Source of the DNA: Promethearchaeia archaeon
GTDB lineage: Archaea > Asgardarchaeota > Lokiarchaeia > Sigyniarchaeales > SOKP01
Direction: 5' to 3'
Assembly (NCBI GenBank): GCA_046497275.1
Contig: JAWOFX010000052.1
Span: 1-32,000, forward strand
DNA length: 32,000 nt
Shown: one piece after another, positions 12,281 to 31,323 of the stretch
How positions within the stretch are numbered: the first letter of the stretch is position 1
How the letters are laid out: the number at the start of each line of letters is the position of its first letter
Translations under genes and position numbers: made by a program
Notes under the pieces: generated by a model
Database searches by the model: none
Told to the model about the DNA's origin: nothing
Seen by the model: only the letters and a program-made list of their open reading frames with translations

Positions 12281-13540
12281 ATGCCACCTAAAGTAGGAAT
12301 AATAGGTGTGGGTATTACGCCCTTTCGAGCGAGATATTTAGATAAAACTTACTTTGAACTAGCTTATGATGCCACAAAGTTGGCTTTAGAAGATGCGAAT
12401 GAAAATGATGCGAATATCACACATAATGATTTAGAAACGACAGTTTATGGAATTTACAATGAGCTATTTGAGCGACAATTTATGCCTGATATCTTCACAA
12501 ATAGTTATATAGGCATGAATGATAAACCAGGAACGAGAATTGCCAGCGGAGGGGCAACAGGCGGATATACGGTAAGAATGGCGTACGCAGAAGTGGCTTC
12601 AGGGTTGTCTGATCTGTGTCTTTGTTTAGGCTTAGAGAAATGTAATGATTGCTATGATGAGCAGACGGGTACAACAACTCCTGAGGTACTCAACGCTATT
12701 GCTTACTCTGCGGATATGACCTATGAATATCCGATGGGTATGATGGCGGCAAGCTCTTATGTGTCAATGGTAAATGCTCATCATGATGAATTTGGTAATC
12801 CTACAGAAAAACAAATGGCGTTAGTAAGTGTAAAAAACCATGGGAATGCGATGAAGAATCCGAAAGCCCAATCCCCAATGGATATAACAGTTCAAGATGT
12901 ATTAAATTCTAGAATTATTTGTTATCCCTTCAAGATGTTAGATTGCTGTCTCTATTCTGAAGCCTCTGCTGCACTTATCTTGGCAAGTGAGGATAAAGTT
13001 AAAGAACTCGGAATTGATAATCCGATATGGATAACGGGCGTTGGAGCAGCAAATACTGATTGCTTTATCGGAAATCGTGAAGATTTAGGAAGGTTGTATT
13101 CAAATATTAATGCTGCGAAAGCGGCATATAAAATGGCTGGACTAGATTACAATGACATAAAGAATCAAGTTGATTTGGCAGAGCTTCATGATGCATTTTC
13201 CGGGCAAGAAGTTATTAGTTATGAGGAATTAGGCTTTGTTCCGTTCGGAGAAGGTGGTCCTTGGATTGAAAGGAGTTATGAAAAGCCCGGAGAAGGGCCT
13301 TGGCTTGAAGGTGAGTTGCCTTGCTGTCCTTCTGGAGGCCTCATTGGATGTGGTCATGCAGTTGGAGCAACTGGAATAATGTCTACAGGAGAAGCTGCTT
13401 TGCAACTTAGAAATGATGCGGGAAAACATCAAGTTGAAATTGAGAAAGGAAGGGCAATTGCACATTCAATTGGAGGTCCAGGAGCGGCATATGCGGCGAT
13501 AATTGTAATGGAAAATGAGGAGGGGTTGGCGAAAAAATGA
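12281..13540 (+). CDS. Thiolase-superfamily protein (SCP-x type) lacking the canonical nucleophile Cys
   Basis: VGIIGVGITPF, ELHDAF, PSGGLIGCGHAVGATG; IASGGATG where C-x-S/T-G is expected. Confidence 0.85.
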   Translation: MPPKVGIIGVGITPFRARYLDKTYFELAYDATKLALEDANENDANITHNDLETTVYGIYNELFERQFMPDIFTNSYIGMNDKPGTRIASGGATGGYTVRMAYAEVASGLSDLCLCLGLEKCNDCYDEQTGTTTPEVLNAIAYSADMTYEYPMGMMAASSYVSMVNAHHDEFGNPTEKQMALVSVKNHGNAMKNPKAQSPMDITVQDVLNSRIICYPFKMLDCCLYSEASAALILASEDKVKELGIDNPIWITGVGAANTDCFIGNREDLGRLYSNINAAKAAYKMAGLDYNDIKNQVDLAELHDAFSGQEVISYEELGFVPFGEGGPWIERSYEKPGEGPWLEGELPCCPSGGLIGCGHAVGATGIMSTGEAALQLRNDAGKHQVEIEKGRAIAHSIGGPGAAYAAIIVMENEEGLAKK

Positions 13541-14040
13541 CGGGAGATAATTTTAAAGCCCATGAAATTAGGGACCGAATCCACATAGACTATAAATACA
13601 CTTATGGTAGCCAAAGCAAATTCTTTATCGATCTAATGAACGAGAAAAAGTTGCAAGGCACTAAATGTAAAAAATGCGGTAAGATATGGATGCCACCACG
13701 GGTCGGTTGTTCAGACTGTTTTGAAGATACAGAATGGATTGAATTACCCCATACTGGTGAGATTATGGTTTCAACTATCGTATGGTATACAACATCAGAT
13801 TTTATCCAAAAGATTCCATATGGTATCGCTTTTATAAAGCTTGATAATGCAGATACTGGAATGCTCCAAGGAGTTTTCTCGGAAAATTTAGTTCCTTCAA
13901 AAATTAGAAAAGGCCAACGGGTAAGAGCGGTATTCAAAACAAAAGAAGAGCGTGAAGGAAAAATGACTGATTTCTTCTTTGTACCAGAAGATGAATATGA
14001 AACGTGGATTAATCAACCCGAATATGAAGGAGGTGAATAA
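13537..14040 (+). CDS. DUF35 Zn-ribbon/OB-fold acyl-CoA-binding protein
   Basis: GTKCKKCG...PPRVGCSDC plus OB fold; ATGA overlap with the upstream thiolase-fold gene. Confidence 0.9.
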   Translation: MTGDNFKAHEIRDRIHIDYKYTYGSQSKFFIDLMNEKKLQGTKCKKCGKIWMPPRVGCSDCFEDTEWIELPHTGEIMVSTIVWYTTSDFIQKIPYGIAFIKLDNADTGMLQGVFSENLVPSKIRKGQRVRAVFKTKEEREGKMTDFFFVPEDEYETWINQPEYEGGE

Positions 14041-14041
14041 A

Positions 14042-14407
14042 ATGGGTGTTGCAAAAGAAAACTTAGAAAAAATTATTGAAAAAGTAAATCAAAATCAGAA
14101 AGCAAGAAATGTATTCGTGACTAATTTAGCTGGAAAAGATGTAAATTGGGATATGAGTTTTCAATTTAAGCTGGATCAAGAAGATCCCTTTTATTTAGAA
14201 ATAAGTGACAGAATGGGAAAAATTCATGATGGACAAGCTAAGGATCCAGATATCATTTTGACCGGAGATAATGAAGCAATCGTGAGAATCTGCAACGGAG
14301 AAGGGGACTTTACTCATGCTATCAGTAGGGAACAAATAACTGTAGAAAAAGGAAAAGTAATGGAAGTTGTGAGATTAACGAGAGCTATTACAACTGCATT
14401 AAGATAA
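14042..14407 (+). CDS. SCP2 sterol/lipid-binding domain protein
   Basis: SFQFKLDQEDPFYLEI...DPDIILTG...AISREQITVEKGKVM; SD GGAGGTGA at 14029-14036 supports ATG 14042. Confidence 0.72.
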   Translation: MGVAKENLEKIIEKVNQNQKARNVFVTNLAGKDVNWDMSFQFKLDQEDPFYLEISDRMGKIHDGQAKDPDIILTGDNEAIVRICNGEGDFTHAISREQITVEKGKVMEVVRLTRAITTALR

Positions 14408-24554: not shown

Positions 24555-25004
24555 TTATATTGGATTAAAATATTCTATATCTGTAATTTTTTTCTGTCTT
24601 CTATCCTTAAACACTGCTTCTACCCTCATCCCTTCTTTTAGCTTCTTTGGATTGCCTTCATTGATTATATGAACAAATCCAGTATCAGCACCATCTAGCT
24701 TTATTATTCCATATCCAAAAGGAGGCTTTAAAGGCATCACATCAGTTGAATGGGTAACAACGGTAAATCCCTCAACAGTTCCTTGATTTCCTACTTCAAC
24801 CCATTCTTCCATCTTTTCAAAGCATTTAAAACAGACCATCTTTGGAGGAACGTAGACCTGCCCACATTTAGGACATTTTACTCCCATAATTTTATTATTT
24901 CTACCGATTTCTTCTAAAAATTTTTCAACGTAATCGCCTGCAGTGTGTTTATAGGGTACTTTAATTCTTCCTCGATAAATCTTTTTCTCTTTATCATCAC
25001 TCAT
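24555..25004 (-). CDS. DUF35 Zn-ribbon/OB-fold protein
   Basis: GVKCPKCG...PPKMVCFKC; SD GAGGTGA supports ATG 25004. Confidence 0.9.
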   Translation of the reverse strand: MSDDKEKKIYRGRIKVPYKHTAGDYVEKFLEEIGRNNKIMGVKCPKCGQVYVPPKMVCFKCFEKMEEWVEVGNQGTVEGFTVVTHSTDVMPLKPPFGYGIIKLDGADTGFVHIINEGNPKKLKEGMRVEAVFKDRRQKKITDIEYFNPI

Positions 25005-25019
25005 AATTTTCACCTCTTT

Positions 25020-25505
25020 TTATTCCTCCTCTATGATTTCAAAATACGGGATATCACCTAAATTTCCCTCCATTTCATCCTTAAACACCGCTTTGACTCT
25101 CTGTCCTATTTTCATCTTTTCATGGTCTTTTTCATTGATGAAATGCATAGTATATGTTTCGGCACCATCTAATTGGAATAACCCATAACCATAAGGAAAA
25201 GGTCTCATCCCACCAGTAGCAGGATCGACGAAGGGATAATTAACAACCGTAAAACCCACCAAAGTTCCAACTGGTGGAACCTCGACCATATCATCTACAG
25301 TCATTTTAACTATACATTCCGCACAAACACCTCTTGGAGGAAAATGTACTTTTCCGCATTCAGGACATTTAGTTCCAAGTAATTTTCGTTCTTTCTTCAA
25401 CGTTTCGAAGAATTTCACAGATACTTTTCCTATCGCATATTTGTAAGGAAGGTCAGTCTTCCATCTTATTTCGAAAGGTTTTTCTTTTTGATCTTTTTTT
25501 CCCAT
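25020..25505 (-). CDS. DUF35 Zn-ribbon/OB-fold protein
   Basis: GTKCPECG...PPRGVCAEC; SD GAGGTGA supports ATG 25505. Confidence 0.9.
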   Translation of the reverse strand: MGKKDQKEKPFEIRWKTDLPYKYAIGKVSVKFFETLKKERKLLGTKCPECGKVHFPPRGVCAECIVKMTVDDMVEVPPVGTLVGFTVVNYPFVDPATGGMRPFPYGYGLFQLDGAETYTMHFINEKDHEKMKIGQRVKAVFKDEMEGNLGDIPYFEIIEEE

Positions 25506-25513
25506 TTTTTTAA

Positions 25514-26707
25514 TCACCTCGGTGGTTCATTTCCAAAAATAGCTAATTCTGTCCATAAACTGCCTCCAAATCCCATAGCAAGTGCCCTTTCTACATCTGG
25601 GACTTGACGTTTCTCTCCTCGCCCCATTATTTGGATAGCTGCCTCAGCAAATCTTACAAGGGCAGTTGCACCAATTGGATTTGTACTTAATACACCCCCA
25701 GAAGGATTCACAGGTAATTCCCCTCCCATCTGAGTGATTCCTTCTCGTAAGATCTCACCGCCTTTTCCTGGTTCCGCAAACCCTAATGCTTCAGTCCAAG
25801 AAAGCTCCGCCCAAGAAGTTGGTTCATAAACTTCCGCAACATCCAGATCTTTTATAGGATCTTTAATTCCGGCTTTTTTATAGGCTTTTTTCGACGCAAT
25901 TGTTGCGGTTGGAAGATCATACATTTTATCATCGCATCCAAATGTGTAATAATGAGCAGTTGCTACAGAATGAAACCATGCTGGATTATCTCGTATTTTT
26001 TTTGCTTCTTTTTCATTAGCATATATAACAGCACATGCACCTTCACTTTGAGGGCAACAATCATGAAGTCGTAGAGGATAAGATATTGTCTGAGAACTCA
26101 TCACATAATCTAAAGTTATATTAGGCATCTGAAGATGCGCAAATGGGTTGTTTGCCGCATTACTTCGATTTTTAACGGTCACCATAGCAGCGGTTTCAGG
26201 ACTCACATTATATTCATTCATATACATATTTGCCATAAGAGCCAATGGTCCGAGAGCTCCAGCAAGAGAAGGGCGCTCCCATACCGGATCAAACGCTGTT
26301 ATAATCCCAGTTGTCGCACCCCCTTCATTTAATTTTTCCCACCCGACAACTAATACTTTATCATAGACCCCCGAGGCTACATTATAATAACCTGAGATCC
26401 CTAAAGAGCTGCCGGTCGTACCGCCAGTCGCAATCTTAACCACAGGTTTCATATAACCCGGAGCCGCATCAATTCCACACCACATTTCAGAGAAATTAAT
26501 TCCTTCGAAATGATCCATTTAGTCTTTAATATTGAAATAATATTAAATATTACCTATGAGGATGGCATCGATATCATTGGGCTCGAGTTGAGCATCATCT
26601 AAAGCCATCTTTACTGCCTCATAAATCATTTCTGGGATATTCACATCTCTTCTTTTACTTCTAAATTTAGTTTGGCCGATTCCAACTATACCAACGTTCT
26701 CCGGCAT
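25514..26707 (-). CDS. Ltp3-like thiolase-fold protein, interrupted: join(26707..26549, 26518..25514), 387 aa if spliced
   Basis: Exon 1 (absent from ORF track): MPENVGIVGIGQTKFRSKRRDVNIPEMIYEAVKMALDDAQLEPNDIDAILIGN (53 aa), with SD GGAGGTGA and TAATG overlap with the upstream gene; exon 2: MDHFEG...NPSGGVLSTNPIGATALVRFAEAAIQIMG. Confidence 0.85.
26519..26548 (-). other. Candidate 30-nt bulge-helix-bulge mRNA intron
   Basis: ATTTAATATTATTTCAATATTAAAGACTAA; two in-frame TAA; 9-bp inner stem; 3-nt bulges AUA and AAA; removal gives GGT AAT ATG GAT (G-N-M-D). Confidence 0.7.
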
Positions 26708-27855
26708 TATTTTTCACCTCCAAATATTAGTACACAATTACCTTGCGAACATATTCCATTCATTCCATTCGCAAGTCCGAGTTTGGCATCTGAAATTTGA
26801 TGCTTTTCAGCTTTTCCCATTAATTGTAATGCTACTTCCGCTACACGTATTAACCCATTTGCCATCGTAGGATTACTACAAAGAACTCCGCCTGAAGGAT
26901 TTACCGGAATAGATCCGTCCATTTCGGTTTCACCGCTGTTAATAAAGTTTCCCCCTTCACCTTTTTCACAAAAACCTAATGCTTCATAACTCATTAACTC
27001 GTGTGCCGAAAATGCATCATATACTTCCGCCACATCTAAATCATTCACTGGATCTGATATGCCTGCCATTTTATAAGCCTCTTTTGCGGCACCTTCCAAT
27101 CCAACTAAATCCGTCATTGTCCTATGCCCTAAATAATACGCATCAGTACAACTTGCATATCCTTTTAGCCATACGGGGGTATCTGTTAATTCTTTTGCTT
27201 TTGCTTCATTCGCTAGCAGCATTGCCACAGCTCCGTCCGAGAAAGGTGGAAAATCTAATTCTCTTAGAGGATATGCTAACATTGGTGAATGTAAAACATC
27301 TTCCATGGTGATCTCTTTTTGAAGATGAGCATAAGGATTTGATACACCATTCTTTCGGTTTTTTACTACCACTTTTGCCGCTTGCTCATCAGAAATTCCA
27401 TATTTTGTCATATACATATTTGCCATTAGCCCAGCGGCAGAGATTTGGTCTAAACCAAGATGCCTCTGATAAAATGGGTCGAAAATGCTGTTGTTTATGA
27501 GATATTGGTCACCTTCAGACGATTTCTGATGAGATACAACGAGTACCGTATCGTATTCACCGGATAACACCCGCATAGCACCATACGCATATGCAAAAGC
27601 TCCATCCCCTGATACTCTCGATTCAGCCTTCCGAACAGATCCTACTGCATCTTGGATTGCCATATTTGCGATTGTACGACCATCATTAAAATCGTTAGAA
27701 CTGGTAATAACACATCCAACATCATCATTTGTTATATTCAGCTCATCATGTAGTTTCTTTACCACTTCAAATACGAGTTCCATTATAGTTAAATCAATTT
27801 TTTCCTGTTCATACTTCGTCTGTGCGACACCACAAATTGCTACTTTACCATCCAT
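26707..27855 (-). CDS. Ltp4-like thiolase-fold protein lacking the nucleophile Cys
   Basis: ESRVSGDGAFAYAYG..RVLSGEYDTVLV, FDPFY, FSDGAVA, NPSGGVLCSNPTMANGLIR; ATG 27855 after GAAGTGA. Confidence 0.85.
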   Translation of the reverse strand: MDGKVAICGVAQTKYEQEKIDLTIMELVFEVVKKLHDELNITNDDVGCVITSSNDFNDGRTIANMAIQDAVGSVRKAESRVSGDGAFAYAYGAMRVLSGEYDTVLVVSHQKSSEGDQYLINNSIFDPFYQRHLGLDQISAAGLMANMYMTKYGISDEQAAKVVVKNRKNGVSNPYAHLQKEITMEDVLHSPMLAYPLRELDFPPFSDGAVAMLLANEAKAKELTDTPVWLKGYASCTDAYYLGHRTMTDLVGLEGAAKEAYKMAGISDPVNDLDVAEVYDAFSAHELMSYEALGFCEKGEGGNFINSGETEMDGSIPVNPSGGVLCSNPTMANGLIRVAEVALQLMGKAEKHQISDAKLGLANGMNGICSQGNCVLIFGGEK

Positions 27856-28049
27856 TAGTATCACTTCTAATATATAATTTTTTTATGGTATTTTATTTTT
27901 AATTGGAATTTATATTAAATAATTTAATATACAATTCAGAAATATTTAAAGATTTCATCCAGATTTAATTTAAATTTGATCATATTCAATACAACACTTT
28001 CTAAATTACAAAAAAACCTTGATTACACCCCGAAATCGCATTAAACAGA

Positions 28050-28089
28050 ATTTCTATTTTTGAATATGGGTTTTTTCATAATCGAAAAT
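28050..28089 (+). repeat. Degenerate direct repeat, left copy
   Basis: atttctatttttgaatatgggttttttcataatcgaaaat; 34/40 identical to 30400-30439, first 18 nt exact. Confidence 0.75.
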
Positions 28090-28271
28090 CTTGTTTACCA
28101 TCATCAGATTATATAGGTCAAAAAGCAATAATTAAACAAAAAAAGTTGGATTGAGTTAACTCGATATAATTAGAATTAAATCCAACAAAAATAAATTTTT
28201 TTTAACATGTTGAGATAGAATTAACGAAATTGAATTAACTGCTCTTAAATTCAAAAAAATTATAAATATAT

Positions 28272-29270
28272 TTATCTTTCTTTCATATATCTTCTTTTCC
28301 TTTCTAAACTATCTGGATAACTATCAAGCATTTTATTAAAAACCCTCGCTCCTAAGCTCAATCCCCATACTGAACCATAATTTGATTCTCTATATCGGAT
28401 TTCATTAAAAATCTTAAATTTATCCTTGATATCTTTTAAAAAACCATAAGAACCAGACCAAAGCCTACTTGTTCCCGCCTCTCCATCACCATCAAAACAA
28501 CCCATTAAAAATGGATAATAATAACTCTTATCTGGAAATGATGGTAATCTAATTAAATTTGATTTATTAGGAACAACACCCCAAGATATTAAATCATTGG
28601 CCATCCGCTGATTTGCAAAATGTATCCGAAAATATTTCACTAGCACCCGTCTACCACCATGTTTTTGCCATTCTTCGTGTATATGCTTAAGTTCTTGATT
28701 TAAACTTAATAAATTTATAAATTTATCAATTAATTCATCATCGTCAATTTTTGTTTTCAAACCGATTCTATAATAGCTTCTATAATCATCTTTTTCTTCG
28801 ACTAAATAACCATCTGAATACATAATACCTAATACATATAGTTGATCATTAGTGGTAATTATATCAAAAAAATCAGATTTTAAATCAGGATGAAAAAGTT
28901 TAGATCTCGCCTCGGATCTAATCAAATAGTGTTCAGTCAAATATTTTTCATAATGATTGAATGCATCTAAAAGATCTCGACTTATATTACCACATTTATT
29001 ACATATATATCTTGTAACTTTATTTTTAATAGTTGAATAAGCATCTTCTGTGATATAACCTTCTTTTCCAGATTTAATCCTATGATATTTTTTGGTAATA
29101 TAGTTATCGTGCATGCTTAAGAATTTAGATAATTCATCATTAGTGATTGAAATATTATGGACTCTTTCTAATTCTCTTCGAATCGCTTCTAGTAATTTGT
29201 AAGCAGAATTATTTTTCAGAATTTCATAATTTCCTCTTGGTCTACCACCACGATTTTTACTTTTTCGCAT
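28272..29270 (-). CDS. Freestanding two-motif LAGLIDADG homing endonuclease with N-terminal extension
   Basis: YVLGIMYSDG and FLMGCFDGDG motifs, GVVPNKS linker; no intein or host-gene sequence visible. Confidence 0.85.
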   Translation of the reverse strand: MRKSKNRGGRPRGNYEILKNNSAYKLLEAIRRELERVHNISITNDELSKFLSMHDNYITKKYHRIKSGKEGYITEDAYSTIKNKVTRYICNKCGNISRDLLDAFNHYEKYLTEHYLIRSEARSKLFHPDLKSDFFDIITTNDQLYVLGIMYSDGYLVEEKDDYRSYYRIGLKTKIDDDELIDKFINLLSLNQELKHIHEEWQKHGGRRVLVKYFRIHFANQRMANDLISWGVVPNKSNLIRLPSFPDKSYYYPFLMGCFDGDGEAGTSRLWSGSYGFLKDIKDKFKIFNEIRYRESNYGSVWGLSLGARVFNKMLDSYPDSLERKRRYMKER

Positions 29271-29794
29271 TTTTACATCATTATTTTTTTTAATTTAAAA
29301 AATTAAACTAATTTGTCCCCGATGATTTTTTGATATTCGAATAATTTGATTGCGAAATCCATATACTATATCAATTAACCATCCTACATATATAGAATGA
29401 GCCTCAGAATCTTTCTTTTTTTTTCCGCATTTTTAAGTGGTGACTTTTTTGGATCAAATAGAAATTTCCAATAGAATGAATTATTAAGATATCATTAAAG
29501 GCTCAAAATTGGTTTTTCAGTCATAAACGAAGAAAAAAACTATTTAGAAAATTTAGAAACACATTTACTTTCATACTAGCAGTTTTTATCTCGAATTGGT
29601 TTCTCAAAAGTAAATCTAAGTATTTTTAATGAATTAGATTCAAAATTTAAACATATTTTTGAACTTTTGGAGGAAAAAAATTAATTTAATTTGTTATTCT
29701 TTCAATATTTATTAAAATTCTTAGAAAAAAATCTTTATCTATAGAAATTAGTTTTATAAATATCAGAAATGCTTTTTTCCGAGTAAAGCACCGG

Positions 29795-30193
29795 TTAAAA
29801 AATATCTATCCGTTTTAAGATTTTGTAACTAAGAAATAGCAAAGGAGTTATTAAATATATCACAAAATACAATGGTGTTAATAAATCTGAGTCTGCTAGA
29901 AAGAATAATCCGACCAACCATCCAATTATAAAAGAAATTCCCCAGGAAGACATTCTTCAATAAGATTTATTAAACCAATAAGACTTACCACACCACTTAA
30001 TAAATAAAAGATCCAAATATAATCAGAAGGAAGTAGACCAGTATTGAAAACAACCGATACAATTATTGGAATAATTGAAGGTATTATTCCCCCAAGTATT
30101 ACTTCAAAAGAATGATTTAAACCTTTTTGAAATTTTTCTATTATACCATCTAATACGATTTCTGATAATAATATAGGAATTAGAGTATATCAA
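29795..30193 (-). pseudogene. Frameshifted small membrane-protein gene
   Basis: Frame A: LIPILLSEIVLDG...LSGVVSLIGLINLIE; shift near 29955 to frame B: RMSSWGISFIIGWLVGLFFL...SYKILKRIDIF*; the putative TTG start (30193) is also out of frame with frame A. Confidence 0.5.
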
Positions 30194-30399
30194 TTTTATC
30201 GTATAATTATTTAAGAAGTGAAATCTTCATACATGTAAACTGGAAGAGTTTTTTTGATTTCAAAATTAACATTACATCTAAATTATATTAGTAAAAAAAA
30301 TATATCCTCCAGAATCACAATACATTGGATCACAGTTTATTCAATACTAAAAATATTTTGAAAGAAGCTCAGAGAGATTCTAAAACCCTACTTAATTAG

Positions 30400-30439
30400 A
30401 TTTCTATTTTTGAATATTAGTTTTTCCAGATTAGAAAAT
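30400..30439 (+). repeat. Degenerate direct repeat, right copy
   Basis: atttctatttttgaatattagtttttccagattagaaaat. Confidence 0.75.
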
Positions 30440-30501
30440 TATAAATAAATTAAAATTTAAACCTATTATTATTATTGAAAAAATAGAATTTCTCCTAACA
30501 A

Positions 30502-31323
30502 ATGAATGTTGAAGATTTTGAAGATATAATATACGAAAAAGAAGATAACGGGATTTGTACGGCAACTATCAGCCGACCTGAAAGAAGAAACGCAGTCTCC
30601 TATGTGAGTTTCCTTGAAATTTATACAGTATTAGACGATATGGAACAAGATAAAACCACAAGAGTATTAATTATAACAGGAGATCCTAAGGGACGAGCAT
30701 TCACCTCAGGAGGATATTTCGAGCCTAACTTTTTTGAAAAAGTTCATAAAGATATTAGGGCAGAAATAGATTTAATGGATATAGCCCAGAAGAAAACATG
30801 TATAAAATTCTGGGAATTTTCTAAACCTGTAATTTTTGCTATCAATGGGATGGCGATAGGAGGAGGAATTTCTATGCCTCTTTTAGGGGGAGATCTCATA
30901 TATATGGCGGAAGATGCATGGTTAGGCTTTTATTTTTCAAAAAGGGCTATCATCGGAGAATTTGGGCTGAATTTTATTCTACCTTTTTATTTAGGATTTC
31001 AAAAAGCGAAGGAAATACTATATTTTGGGAACAAAATCTCTGCTCAAGAAGCTCTAGAATTAGGATTGGTTAATGAAGTTGTTCCAAATGATGAACTCCT
31101 TCCTTTTGCCCGAGAGCAAGCGTTAAAATTAATCCCCCCGAAAGGTCCTAGTCTCTCGATTAAATTAATGAAAAAGACATTGCATGCATATTTCAAATCA
31201 ATCTTAGATCAAACGCTCGATTTAGAGAATAAAGGTCTAAGAAAAACATTTCGTTCTAAAGATTTTCATGAATCTATGAAAGCTTTAAAGGAAAAAAGAG
31301 AACCAGAATTTATTGGAAAATAA
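30502..31323 (+). CDS. Enoyl-CoA hydratase/isomerase (crotonase) family protein
   Basis: ISRPERRNAV, FTSGG, IFAINGMAIGGG, ISAQEALELGLVNEVV. Confidence 0.9.
   Translation: MNVEDFEDIIYEKEDNGICTATISRPERRNAVSYVSFLEIYTVLDDMEQDKTTRVLIITGDPKGRAFTSGGYFEPNFFEKVHKDIRAEIDLMDIAQKKTCIKFWEFSKPVIFAINGMAIGGGISMPLLGGDLIYMAEDAWLGFYFSKRAIIGEFGLNFILPFYLGFQKAKEILYFGNKISAQEALELGLVNEVVPNDELLPFAREQALKLIPPKGPSLSIKLMKKTLHAYFKSILDQTLDLENKGLRKTFRSKDFHESMKALKEKREPEFIGK

Follow-up and report, generated by a model that had tools for sequence, protein, structure and literature searches.

Could a 30-nucleotide (nt) intron within an archaeon's protein-coding gene be spread by a homing endonuclease that is encoded outside it? 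This question is raised by a locus in a stretch of 32,000 nt (hereafter the window: the whole piece of DNA analysed, positions 1 to 32,000 of contig JAWOFX010000052.1) from the metagenome-assembled genome (MAG) of a Promethearchaeia archaeon of the Lokiarchaeia-type Asgard archaea (assembly GCA_046497275.1, here G000; 3.85 Mb, 188 contigs, 98.9% complete). In this window, the thiolase-like gene thiB is interrupted by a 30-nt insert resembling a bulge-helix-bulge (BHB) intron, and a gene for a predicted LAGLIDADG endonuclease lies on the other side of the paralogue thiA. We propose, with a probability of roughly 0.6, that endonuclease and intron spread together as a collaborative homing system, in which a spliced BHB intron, cutting of the intron-less junction, break repair and immunity of the carrier would act together.

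A predicted BHB mini-intron in thiB

The thiB gene appears as two open reading frames (ORFs): a 54-amino-acid (aa) ORF ending in ...ILIGNI* and, 24 bases further on, a 334-aa ORF starting with MDHFEG. The latter matches the NCBIfam profile PRK08313 (thiolase domain) only from profile position 57, and the 54-aa ORF is therefore the missing N-terminal start of thiB. Exactly 30 nt, carrying in-frame stops, separate ...ILIGN from MDHFEG, and shifting both intron cuts by 1 nt yields an identical spliced product. In a first alignment of 12 related genomes, the insert was found at the same base in five and absent to the base in seven, the uninterrupted alleles reading ...GGNAAT/ATGGAY... (the slash marks the insertion point). 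A scan of the family was then based on 135 genomes, 58 of which contain thiB; the insert is present in 12 of these 58 and absent from 46, and is also found on two metagenome contigs. Compared base by base with 26 intron-less alleles, it measures exactly 30 nt and its removal restores a colinear product. Both exons are intact and conserved across the 14 intron-bearing alleles, in which the length of the insert is fixed at 30 nt.

These 14 alleles share a BHB core made of a 2-bp outer helix, a 4-bp central helix, two 3-nt bulges and a 9-bp inner hairpin. In the central helix, GGUA of exon 1 pairs with UACU, which is located close to the intron's 3' end; the bulges, AU/A and AA/A, lie on opposite strands, and cuts after the second base of each correspond to the observed exon ends. 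Over the whole alignment 96.7% of the cells are paired and four pairs changed on both sides, a degree of pairing attained by none of 500 shuffles, while slid registers reached 32-41%. Compensatory changes occur in both helices: central-helix variants include GGCA with UGCU and GGUA with UGCC, and the inner helix is 98% paired with three covarying pairs. The motif is somewhat relaxed, because the outer helix is only 2 bp long (an invariant U.G, and an A-U in 10 of the 14 alleles) and because the central helix of G000 itself contains one A.G mismatch. Minimum free energy folding of the single G000 sequence was no better than that of shuffled sequences (z -0.47), the BHB structure being visible only by comparison. 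Judged by this comparison of alleles, the thiB insert is a true BHB intron, and from its conservation we infer that it is spliced. The exact presence or absence of 30 nt in orthologues, together with the helix covariation, thus upholds the proposal, made in a preliminary description of the window, of an ORF-less BHB-like intron.

The splicing machinery of G000 includes two EndA-family genes and two RtcB genes. The EndA-family genes are located at G000:C46:30392-30622 and G000:C168:8310-8564, each with an open frame of about 200 aa. Two separate EndA genes suggest a two-subunit enzyme. Heteromeric EndA accepts relaxed motifs (PMC5829648), and the two different genes of G000 would fit this type.

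Searches with our model R1 found no second sequence-similar intron anywhere in G000, and no similar intron was accepted beside 40 paralogous endonuclease loci; the sole match, in L041, runs antisense to a gene that is intact, and was rejected. In this region nothing was found by Rfam or tRNA scans.

A putative free-standing LAGLIDADG homing endonuclease

The endonuclease ORF of 332 aa is intact and single-copy in G000, and its stop codon lies 1,723 nt from the intron. It has 22 homologous proteins, mostly of about 334 aa, from Promethearchaeota. Their alignment revealed two LAGLIDADG motifs, LGIMYSDGY (D153-G154) and LMGCFDGDGE (D262-G263), invariant or nearly so, acidic residues included. Taken alone, the 332-aa protein matches PF14528 at an E value of 0.12, below the Pfam cut-off, whereas nine of 16 homologues match this domain at E <= 0.01, and the family profile matches I-Tsp061I (PDB 2dch), an archaeal intron endonuclease, at 1.4e-6. 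The AlphaFold model reached a predicted local distance difference test (pLDDT) score of 83 with the alignment versus 34 from the single sequence. Its residues 141-317 form two alpha-beta-beta-alpha-beta-beta-alpha half-domains, which Foldseek matched with a probability of 1.0 to the bI3 maturase (best match), I-SceI, I-AniI, I-DmoI and I-Tsp061I. By modelled fold and motifs, the ORF is predicted to encode a free-standing monomeric LAGLIDADG homing endonuclease, in agreement with the preliminary description, which had noticed an apparently intact LAGLIDADG gene about 1.7 kb from the intron. Its first ~125 aa form a conserved helical domain, which probably serves as an additional DNA-binding module. 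The ratio of nonsynonymous to synonymous substitution rates (dN/dS) relative to orthologues is 0.13-0.29, with dS saturated, and the endonuclease ORFs are under purifying selection.

Given the long open frames found in many relatives, an intein origin was considered and rejected: the long forms carry an N-terminal Zn-ribbon-like extension, not an extein. Many more-distant homologues in related genomes are located in open frames of 900-1,350 aa (e.g., G121:C70, G104:C323, G088:C90, G105:C97), which may be inteins or fusions. One paralogue, 30% identical, lies in L041 (Ga0114921_10018461) between two tandem HMGL-like genes of the aldolase or isopropylmalate-synthase type that are on the opposite strand, where model R1 found no intron.

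Co-occurrence of the endonuclease gene and the intron

Endonucleases at least 50% identical to that of G000 were considered orthologues, and linkage was counted where the neighbouring gene could be read. Six loci qualify, namely G000, G066 (L038, contig JAHQWS010000147; 69% identical, a long form), G075 (56%, the endonuclease gene and thiB being on two contig ends), G116 (58%, with an orphan exon 1 kept) and the metagenome contigs mgL039 (Ga0209977_10000517; 57%) and mgL040 (51%, frameshifted). The truncated G150 orthologue (50%), whose thiB is deleted, is uninformative, and the neighbourhoods of the closest homologues by identity, P0002 (73%) and P0003 (64%), stand outside the linkage count. 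All six orthologues, from four genera and two metagenomes, adjoin an intron-bearing thiB. In the five loci other than G000, thiB exon 1 is immediately preceded by the endonuclease gene. None of the 46 intron-less thiB loci has such an endonuclease gene (Fisher p = 0.0012 over the 58 family genomes, which as relatives are not independent). The same pairing is seen within genera: the intron is found in two of the 15 genomes of genus g11 and in one of the four of genus g5, each time with the endonuclease gene. The link between intron and endonuclease, for which the preliminary description had proximity to go on, is thus borne out across relatives by the co-occurrence test which that description had suggested, and the endonuclease would belong to a Promethearchaeia clade whose members travel with the thiB intron.

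Seen from the intron, the association is looser. Six of the 14 intron-bearing alleles are accompanied by the endonuclease gene and eight are not, and the intron-only alleles are scattered over five genera.

Footprints of movement at the DNA level

The G075 locus is a mosaic. This genome of genus g11 matches G123, which belongs to genus g2, at 96-100% identity in the final ~450 nt of thiA and at 97-100% in the initial ~225-300 nt of thiB exon 2; the ~300 nt that adjoin the thiA tract on its upstream side are 85-92% identical to g2 genomes. Beyond the tract, G075 is closest to its own genus upstream (81-90%) and falls to background identity downstream (about 70-90%, with mixed nearest neighbours). 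Such a two-sided tract around the cassette would be the classic footprint of homing with co-conversion. G075 (L153, G075:C22, ~5630) and L040 (~400) have in common a left junction inside the 3' end of thiA (...TTTGAAAATTAATA), and their thiA therefore ends in IFEN* rather than IFGGE..*, which points to a common origin of this cassette arrangement.

A second footprint is found in G116 (L154, G116:C168, 401-520), where an orphan copy of thiB exon 1 directly follows thiA. This copy has a 55-nt 5' deletion and no start codon, and its homology stops exactly at GGTAAT/, the intron site. The next 9 nt look like the beginning of the intron. Beyond them, the same contig has 6 kb of unrelated DNA and after it the endonuclease gene, which is followed by a complete exon 1, then the intron and exon 2. 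At a smaller scale, the intron-bearing G123 and the intron-less G136 are 95% identical. Six synonymous differences cluster within the final 25 nt of exon 1, and the opening 34 nt of exon 2 have none. This cluster fits a short conversion tract better than a clean loss of the intron.

The cassettes share only the ORF of the endonuclease, the DNA upstream of the gene differing between them. On L039 (1-7900), what comes ahead of the unit of endonuclease gene, exon 1 and intron is 8 kb of unrelated genes instead of thiA.

Candidate target and proposed mechanism

In intron-less alleles, 20 of the 26 junction positions between -9 and +17 never vary, and the junction encodes the conserved IGN-MDHFEG. 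Conserved coding segments are the kind of site that homing enzymes favour. Around this junction we compared alleles over 450 nt, made up of 150 nt at the end of exon 1 and 300 nt at the start of exon 2. No base in this stretch was common to all six endonuclease-bearing alleles and yet rare among the 26 intron-less ones. Since there is no other consistent difference, the intron is the only candidate immunity determinant within these 450 nt. No uninterrupted junction-like site was found in G000 within three mismatches. We therefore favour, and infer from these comparisons, the intron insertion site as the candidate target and the intron as the candidate immunity element.

In the mechanism that we propose, the tRNA-splicing endonuclease would excise the 30-nt intron from the thiB mRNA and RtcB would rejoin the exons. 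The LAGLIDADG endonuclease would cut intron-less thiB at or near the conserved IGN/MDHFEG junction, and the intron-bearing allele would serve as template for the repair of the break. By splitting the recognition site, the intron would protect its carrier, while splicing would keep thiB functional. The end point of the conversion tract on the upstream side would decide the cargo, either the intron alone, as in eight of the 14 alleles, or the intron together with the endonuclease gene, as in the other six. The cassette in its usual form has the endonuclease gene directly upstream of exon 1, and that of G000 differs in having it upstream of thiA, in an insert bounded by duplicated promoter sequence.

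Locus organization in the window

The minus-strand operon of G000 consists of thiA, thiB and two DUF35/ChsH2-type genes, with a gene for enoyl-CoA hydratase (ECH) divergent from it (Table 1). A second set of thiolase-like and DUF35 genes, without an intron, is found at window positions 12281-14407.

Table 1. Coordinates of the features of the thiB locus, as positions in the window
Feature	Position	Strand	Evidence
DUF35 pair (ChsH2-type Zn-ribbon and OB-fold), completing the operon	25020-25517, 24555-25013	-	ORF and profile matches
thiB exon 2 (MDHFEG...), 334 codons and stop; thiolase-like/lipid-transfer-protein family	25514..26518	-	PRK08313 positions 57-387
Predicted BHB mini-intron in thiB, 30 nt	26519..26548	-	Presence/absence, helix covariation, model R1
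thiB exon 1 (M...ILIGN), 53 codons; start overlaps the thiA stop	26549..26707	-	ORFs, orthologue alignment
thiA, thiolase-like paralogue, between the endonuclease gene and thiB	26707..27864	-	ORF and profile matches
Direct repeat, left copy, ~50 bp; resembles the single G002 copy	28040..28090	.	
Inserted segment in the divergent ECH-thiA promoter region, about 2.3-2.35 kb	28091..30389	.	Alignment with G002
Free-standing double-motif LAGLIDADG gene, 332 aa: N-terminal helical domain (~125 aa) and LAGLIDADG core	28272..29270	-	
Frame-broken remnant of the N-terminal extension	29241..29524	-	tblastn and tblastx
Direct repeat, right copy, more diverged; resembles the G017-type variant	30390..30440	.	
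ECH gene, conserved divergent neighbour; marks the far side of the insertion	30502..31323	+	

The spacer between the ECH gene and thiA measures 2,637 nt in G000 versus about 240-330 nt in the same-genus G002 and in G017, G018, G004, G023 and G013. The insert responsible for this difference is bounded by a repeat of about 50 bp, imperfect in G000 and represented in the other genomes by a single conserved motif. The repeat contains RATTTCTAWTTTTGAATA, which is conserved in the ECH-thiA promoter region of several genera and is present in single copy in L028 (G002), L031 (G004) and L027 (G017); both operons may share it as a site bound by a regulator. Exactly where the G000 insert starts, G002 (L028) shows a 12-nt tandem duplication (AAAAACGAAAAT, twice), which could have arisen by slippage or be the trace of an insert that was lost.

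Within the insert, the N-terminal extension that is still present in the long-form orthologues P0002 (557 aa) and G066 (517 aa) persists as a remnant in broken frames; the window copy has therefore lost part of the ancestral gene. The 1.16 kb of non-coding DNA in the insert match only this extension remnant and a few short AT-rich stretches elsewhere. A segment of about 100 nt (window 30157-30254) is 79% identical to sites in G063:C22 and G077:C12, the former also holding a LAGLIDADG homologue some 7 kb from the match; this segment may be a fragment of a gene or a small non-coding element that is conserved. Based on its position and its lost extension, the endonuclease copy in the window represents a derived and possibly decaying stage of the element.

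Alternative explanations

Several observations weigh against collaborative homing at this locus. The window copy may no longer be active, as it lies 1.7 kb away behind thiA with its extension decayed. Sliding identity against relatives revealed no recent or clear conversion tract in G000, because synonymous sites have reached saturation and identity to genomes of its own genus is only 76-87%. The mosaic of G075 spans two contig ends of a MAG, and a chimeric assembly is therefore possible. The flanking duplications, of 50 bp in G000 and of exon 1 with ~9 intron-like nt in G116, would not obviously arise from simple double-strand break repair, and integration by a single crossover would suit them as well. 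Any endonuclease gene close by would take the intron with it through tight linkage alone. The eight intron alleles lacking an endonuclease gene are what homing expects, and equally what hitch-hiking expects. Finally, no endonuclease gene was found at the locus in the intron-bearing G002, G017 and G018, which have a short ECH-thiA spacer, or in G014, which has a 1.2-kb spacer whose contents were not examined.

Under the hitch-hiking alternative, a homing enzyme targets some other site nearby, either the thiA/thiB boundary or the promoter motif, and the intron is co-converted without any role in immunity. Much of the locus data can be read in this manner. The endonuclease gene lies at the thiA/thiB boundary in five of the six loci, two of which (G075 and mgL040) have the same left junction within the 3'-terminal part of thiA; the conversion tracts observed, several hundred nt in length, would suffice to drag the intron with them; and the G000 insert is bounded by a duplicated conserved motif. 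Yet the insertion position of the gene differs, being the thiA/thiB boundary in the other loci and the promoter in G000, so that no insertion site is common to all six, whereas the intron is. Moreover, the thiA/thiB boundary of G000 and the promoter spacer of G075 are both intact, and each genome would thus carry the supposed target of the other uninterrupted. Neither the orphan exon 1 of G116, which stops exactly at the intron site, nor the scatter of intron-only alleles over five genera is in keeping with a target elsewhere. We consequently regard hitch-hiking as unlikely.

Recombination that is not started by the endonuclease would be a more radical alternative, whether it involved the single crossover of a circle or ordinary homologous exchange, the protein being inactive or having another role such as DNA or RNA binding. 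Campbell-type integration leaves a direct duplication of host sequence on both sides, and host sequence is indeed directly duplicated around the insert, as 50 bp in G000 and as exon 1 in G116. The cargo upstream of the endonuclease gene also differs between loci, and the best Foldseek match is a maturase. An inactive protein would nonetheless hardly have retained both catalytic acidic residues in ORFs under purifying selection; the endonuclease ORF is all that the cassettes share, as expected of a selfish unit; and the strict pairing with one interrupted site would be left unexplained. Such recombination appears to us quite improbable.

The notion that the proximity seen in the window is a chance association or historical relic devoid of functional link drew on four of the five intron-bearing relatives first examined (G002, G017, G014 and G018), whose lack of an endonuclease gene looked refuting at first, but it is now strongly disfavoured, the tally from the endonuclease side having reversed this result with linkage in six of six loci over four genera and two metagenomes versus none of 46 intron-less loci. 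Just as improbable is an unspliced insert, with thiB either a pseudogene or expressed as two polypeptides: exon 2 does start with ATG, the outer helix has only 2 bp and the central helix of G000 its A.G mismatch, but no Shine-Dalgarno-like sequence precedes this ATG, and the exact 30 nt, the compensatory changes and both intact exons are kept in 14 alleles.

Comparison with known systems

The closest known counterpart is collaborative homing involving F-CphI, reportedly described by Zeng, Bonocora and Shub in 2009. In cyanophage S-PM2, the free-standing F-CphI cuts intron-less psbA and a group I intron protects its carrier (PMC6083498). As in S-PM2, a free-standing endonuclease gene here adjoins a gene with an ORF-less intron, and the intron-less insertion site is the proposed target; also as in S-PM2, the intron would shield the genome that carries it and would obtain mobility in exchange. 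Unlike the phage intron, a self-splicing ribozyme, the thiB intron would be a protein-spliced BHB intron of 30 nt. The enzyme is of the LAGLIDADG type here and Endo VII-like there, the host is a cellular Asgard archaeon and not a phage, and the usual thiB cassette brings a copy of exon 1 with it. For F-CphI, cleavage and immunity have been demonstrated, whereas for the thiB system both are proposed.

T-even phages provide further parallels. The mobE gene of T4 mobilises the neighbouring defunct I-TevIII intron in trans (PMC2790892), and the seg genes are an instance of intron-less homing by free-standing endonucleases (PMC2988022). In these systems, as proposed for thiB, break repair copies a free-standing endonuclease gene along with the markers on its flanks, and co-conversion over hundreds of bases mobilises a neighbouring intron. 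They differ in residing in phage genomes, in relying on HNH or GIY-YIG enzymes and group I introns, and in that target and insertion site are known experimentally.

The BHB introns of archaeal rRNA and tRNA genes (I-DmoI, I-Tsp061I/2dch, I-PorI) resemble the thiB system in endonuclease fold, in intron class and in homing into a conserved site. Unlike I-DmoI-type introns, where the ORF lies inside a long intron of a stable RNA gene, the thiB element would combine a 30-nt mRNA intron with an ORF outside it. Among mRNA introns, the BHB intron of the crenarchaeal cbf5 pre-mRNA is also too short to encode a nuclease (PMC2738675); in the literature searched, it is the only experimentally confirmed archaeal mRNA intron, and no mobility mechanism is known for it (PMC2738675). 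It differs from the thiB intron in having no associated endonuclease and no evidence of DNA-level mobility (PMC2738675). Our full-text literature search found no paper on this pairing of intron and endonuclease in Asgard archaea, and the spread by break repair of introns in archaeal protein genes is a route that we did not find published.

A wider proposal, which we advance tentatively and with more doubt than confidence, is that free-standing LAGLIDADG enzymes cutting intron insertion sites are the general route by which 30-nt BHB mini-introns invade protein genes of Lokiarchaeia-type Asgard archaea and spread in them, the intron acting as self-immunity element. The stages represented among the thiB cassettes (full, orphan exon, relocated and decaying endonuclease gene, intron-only) make this locus a tractable example. 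Recognizing such mini-introns, which make gene callers split or truncate genes, improves the annotation of Asgard genomes, and the system would add LAGLIDADG enzymes with new specificities. The thiB case provides a bench-testable hypothesis for the spread of mRNA introns in Asgard archaea. If true, it would carry collaborative homing beyond the group I introns of phages to a class of introns spliced by proteins and, if general, would represent a system of DNA-level mobility for mRNA introns among the prokaryotes most closely related to eukaryotes.

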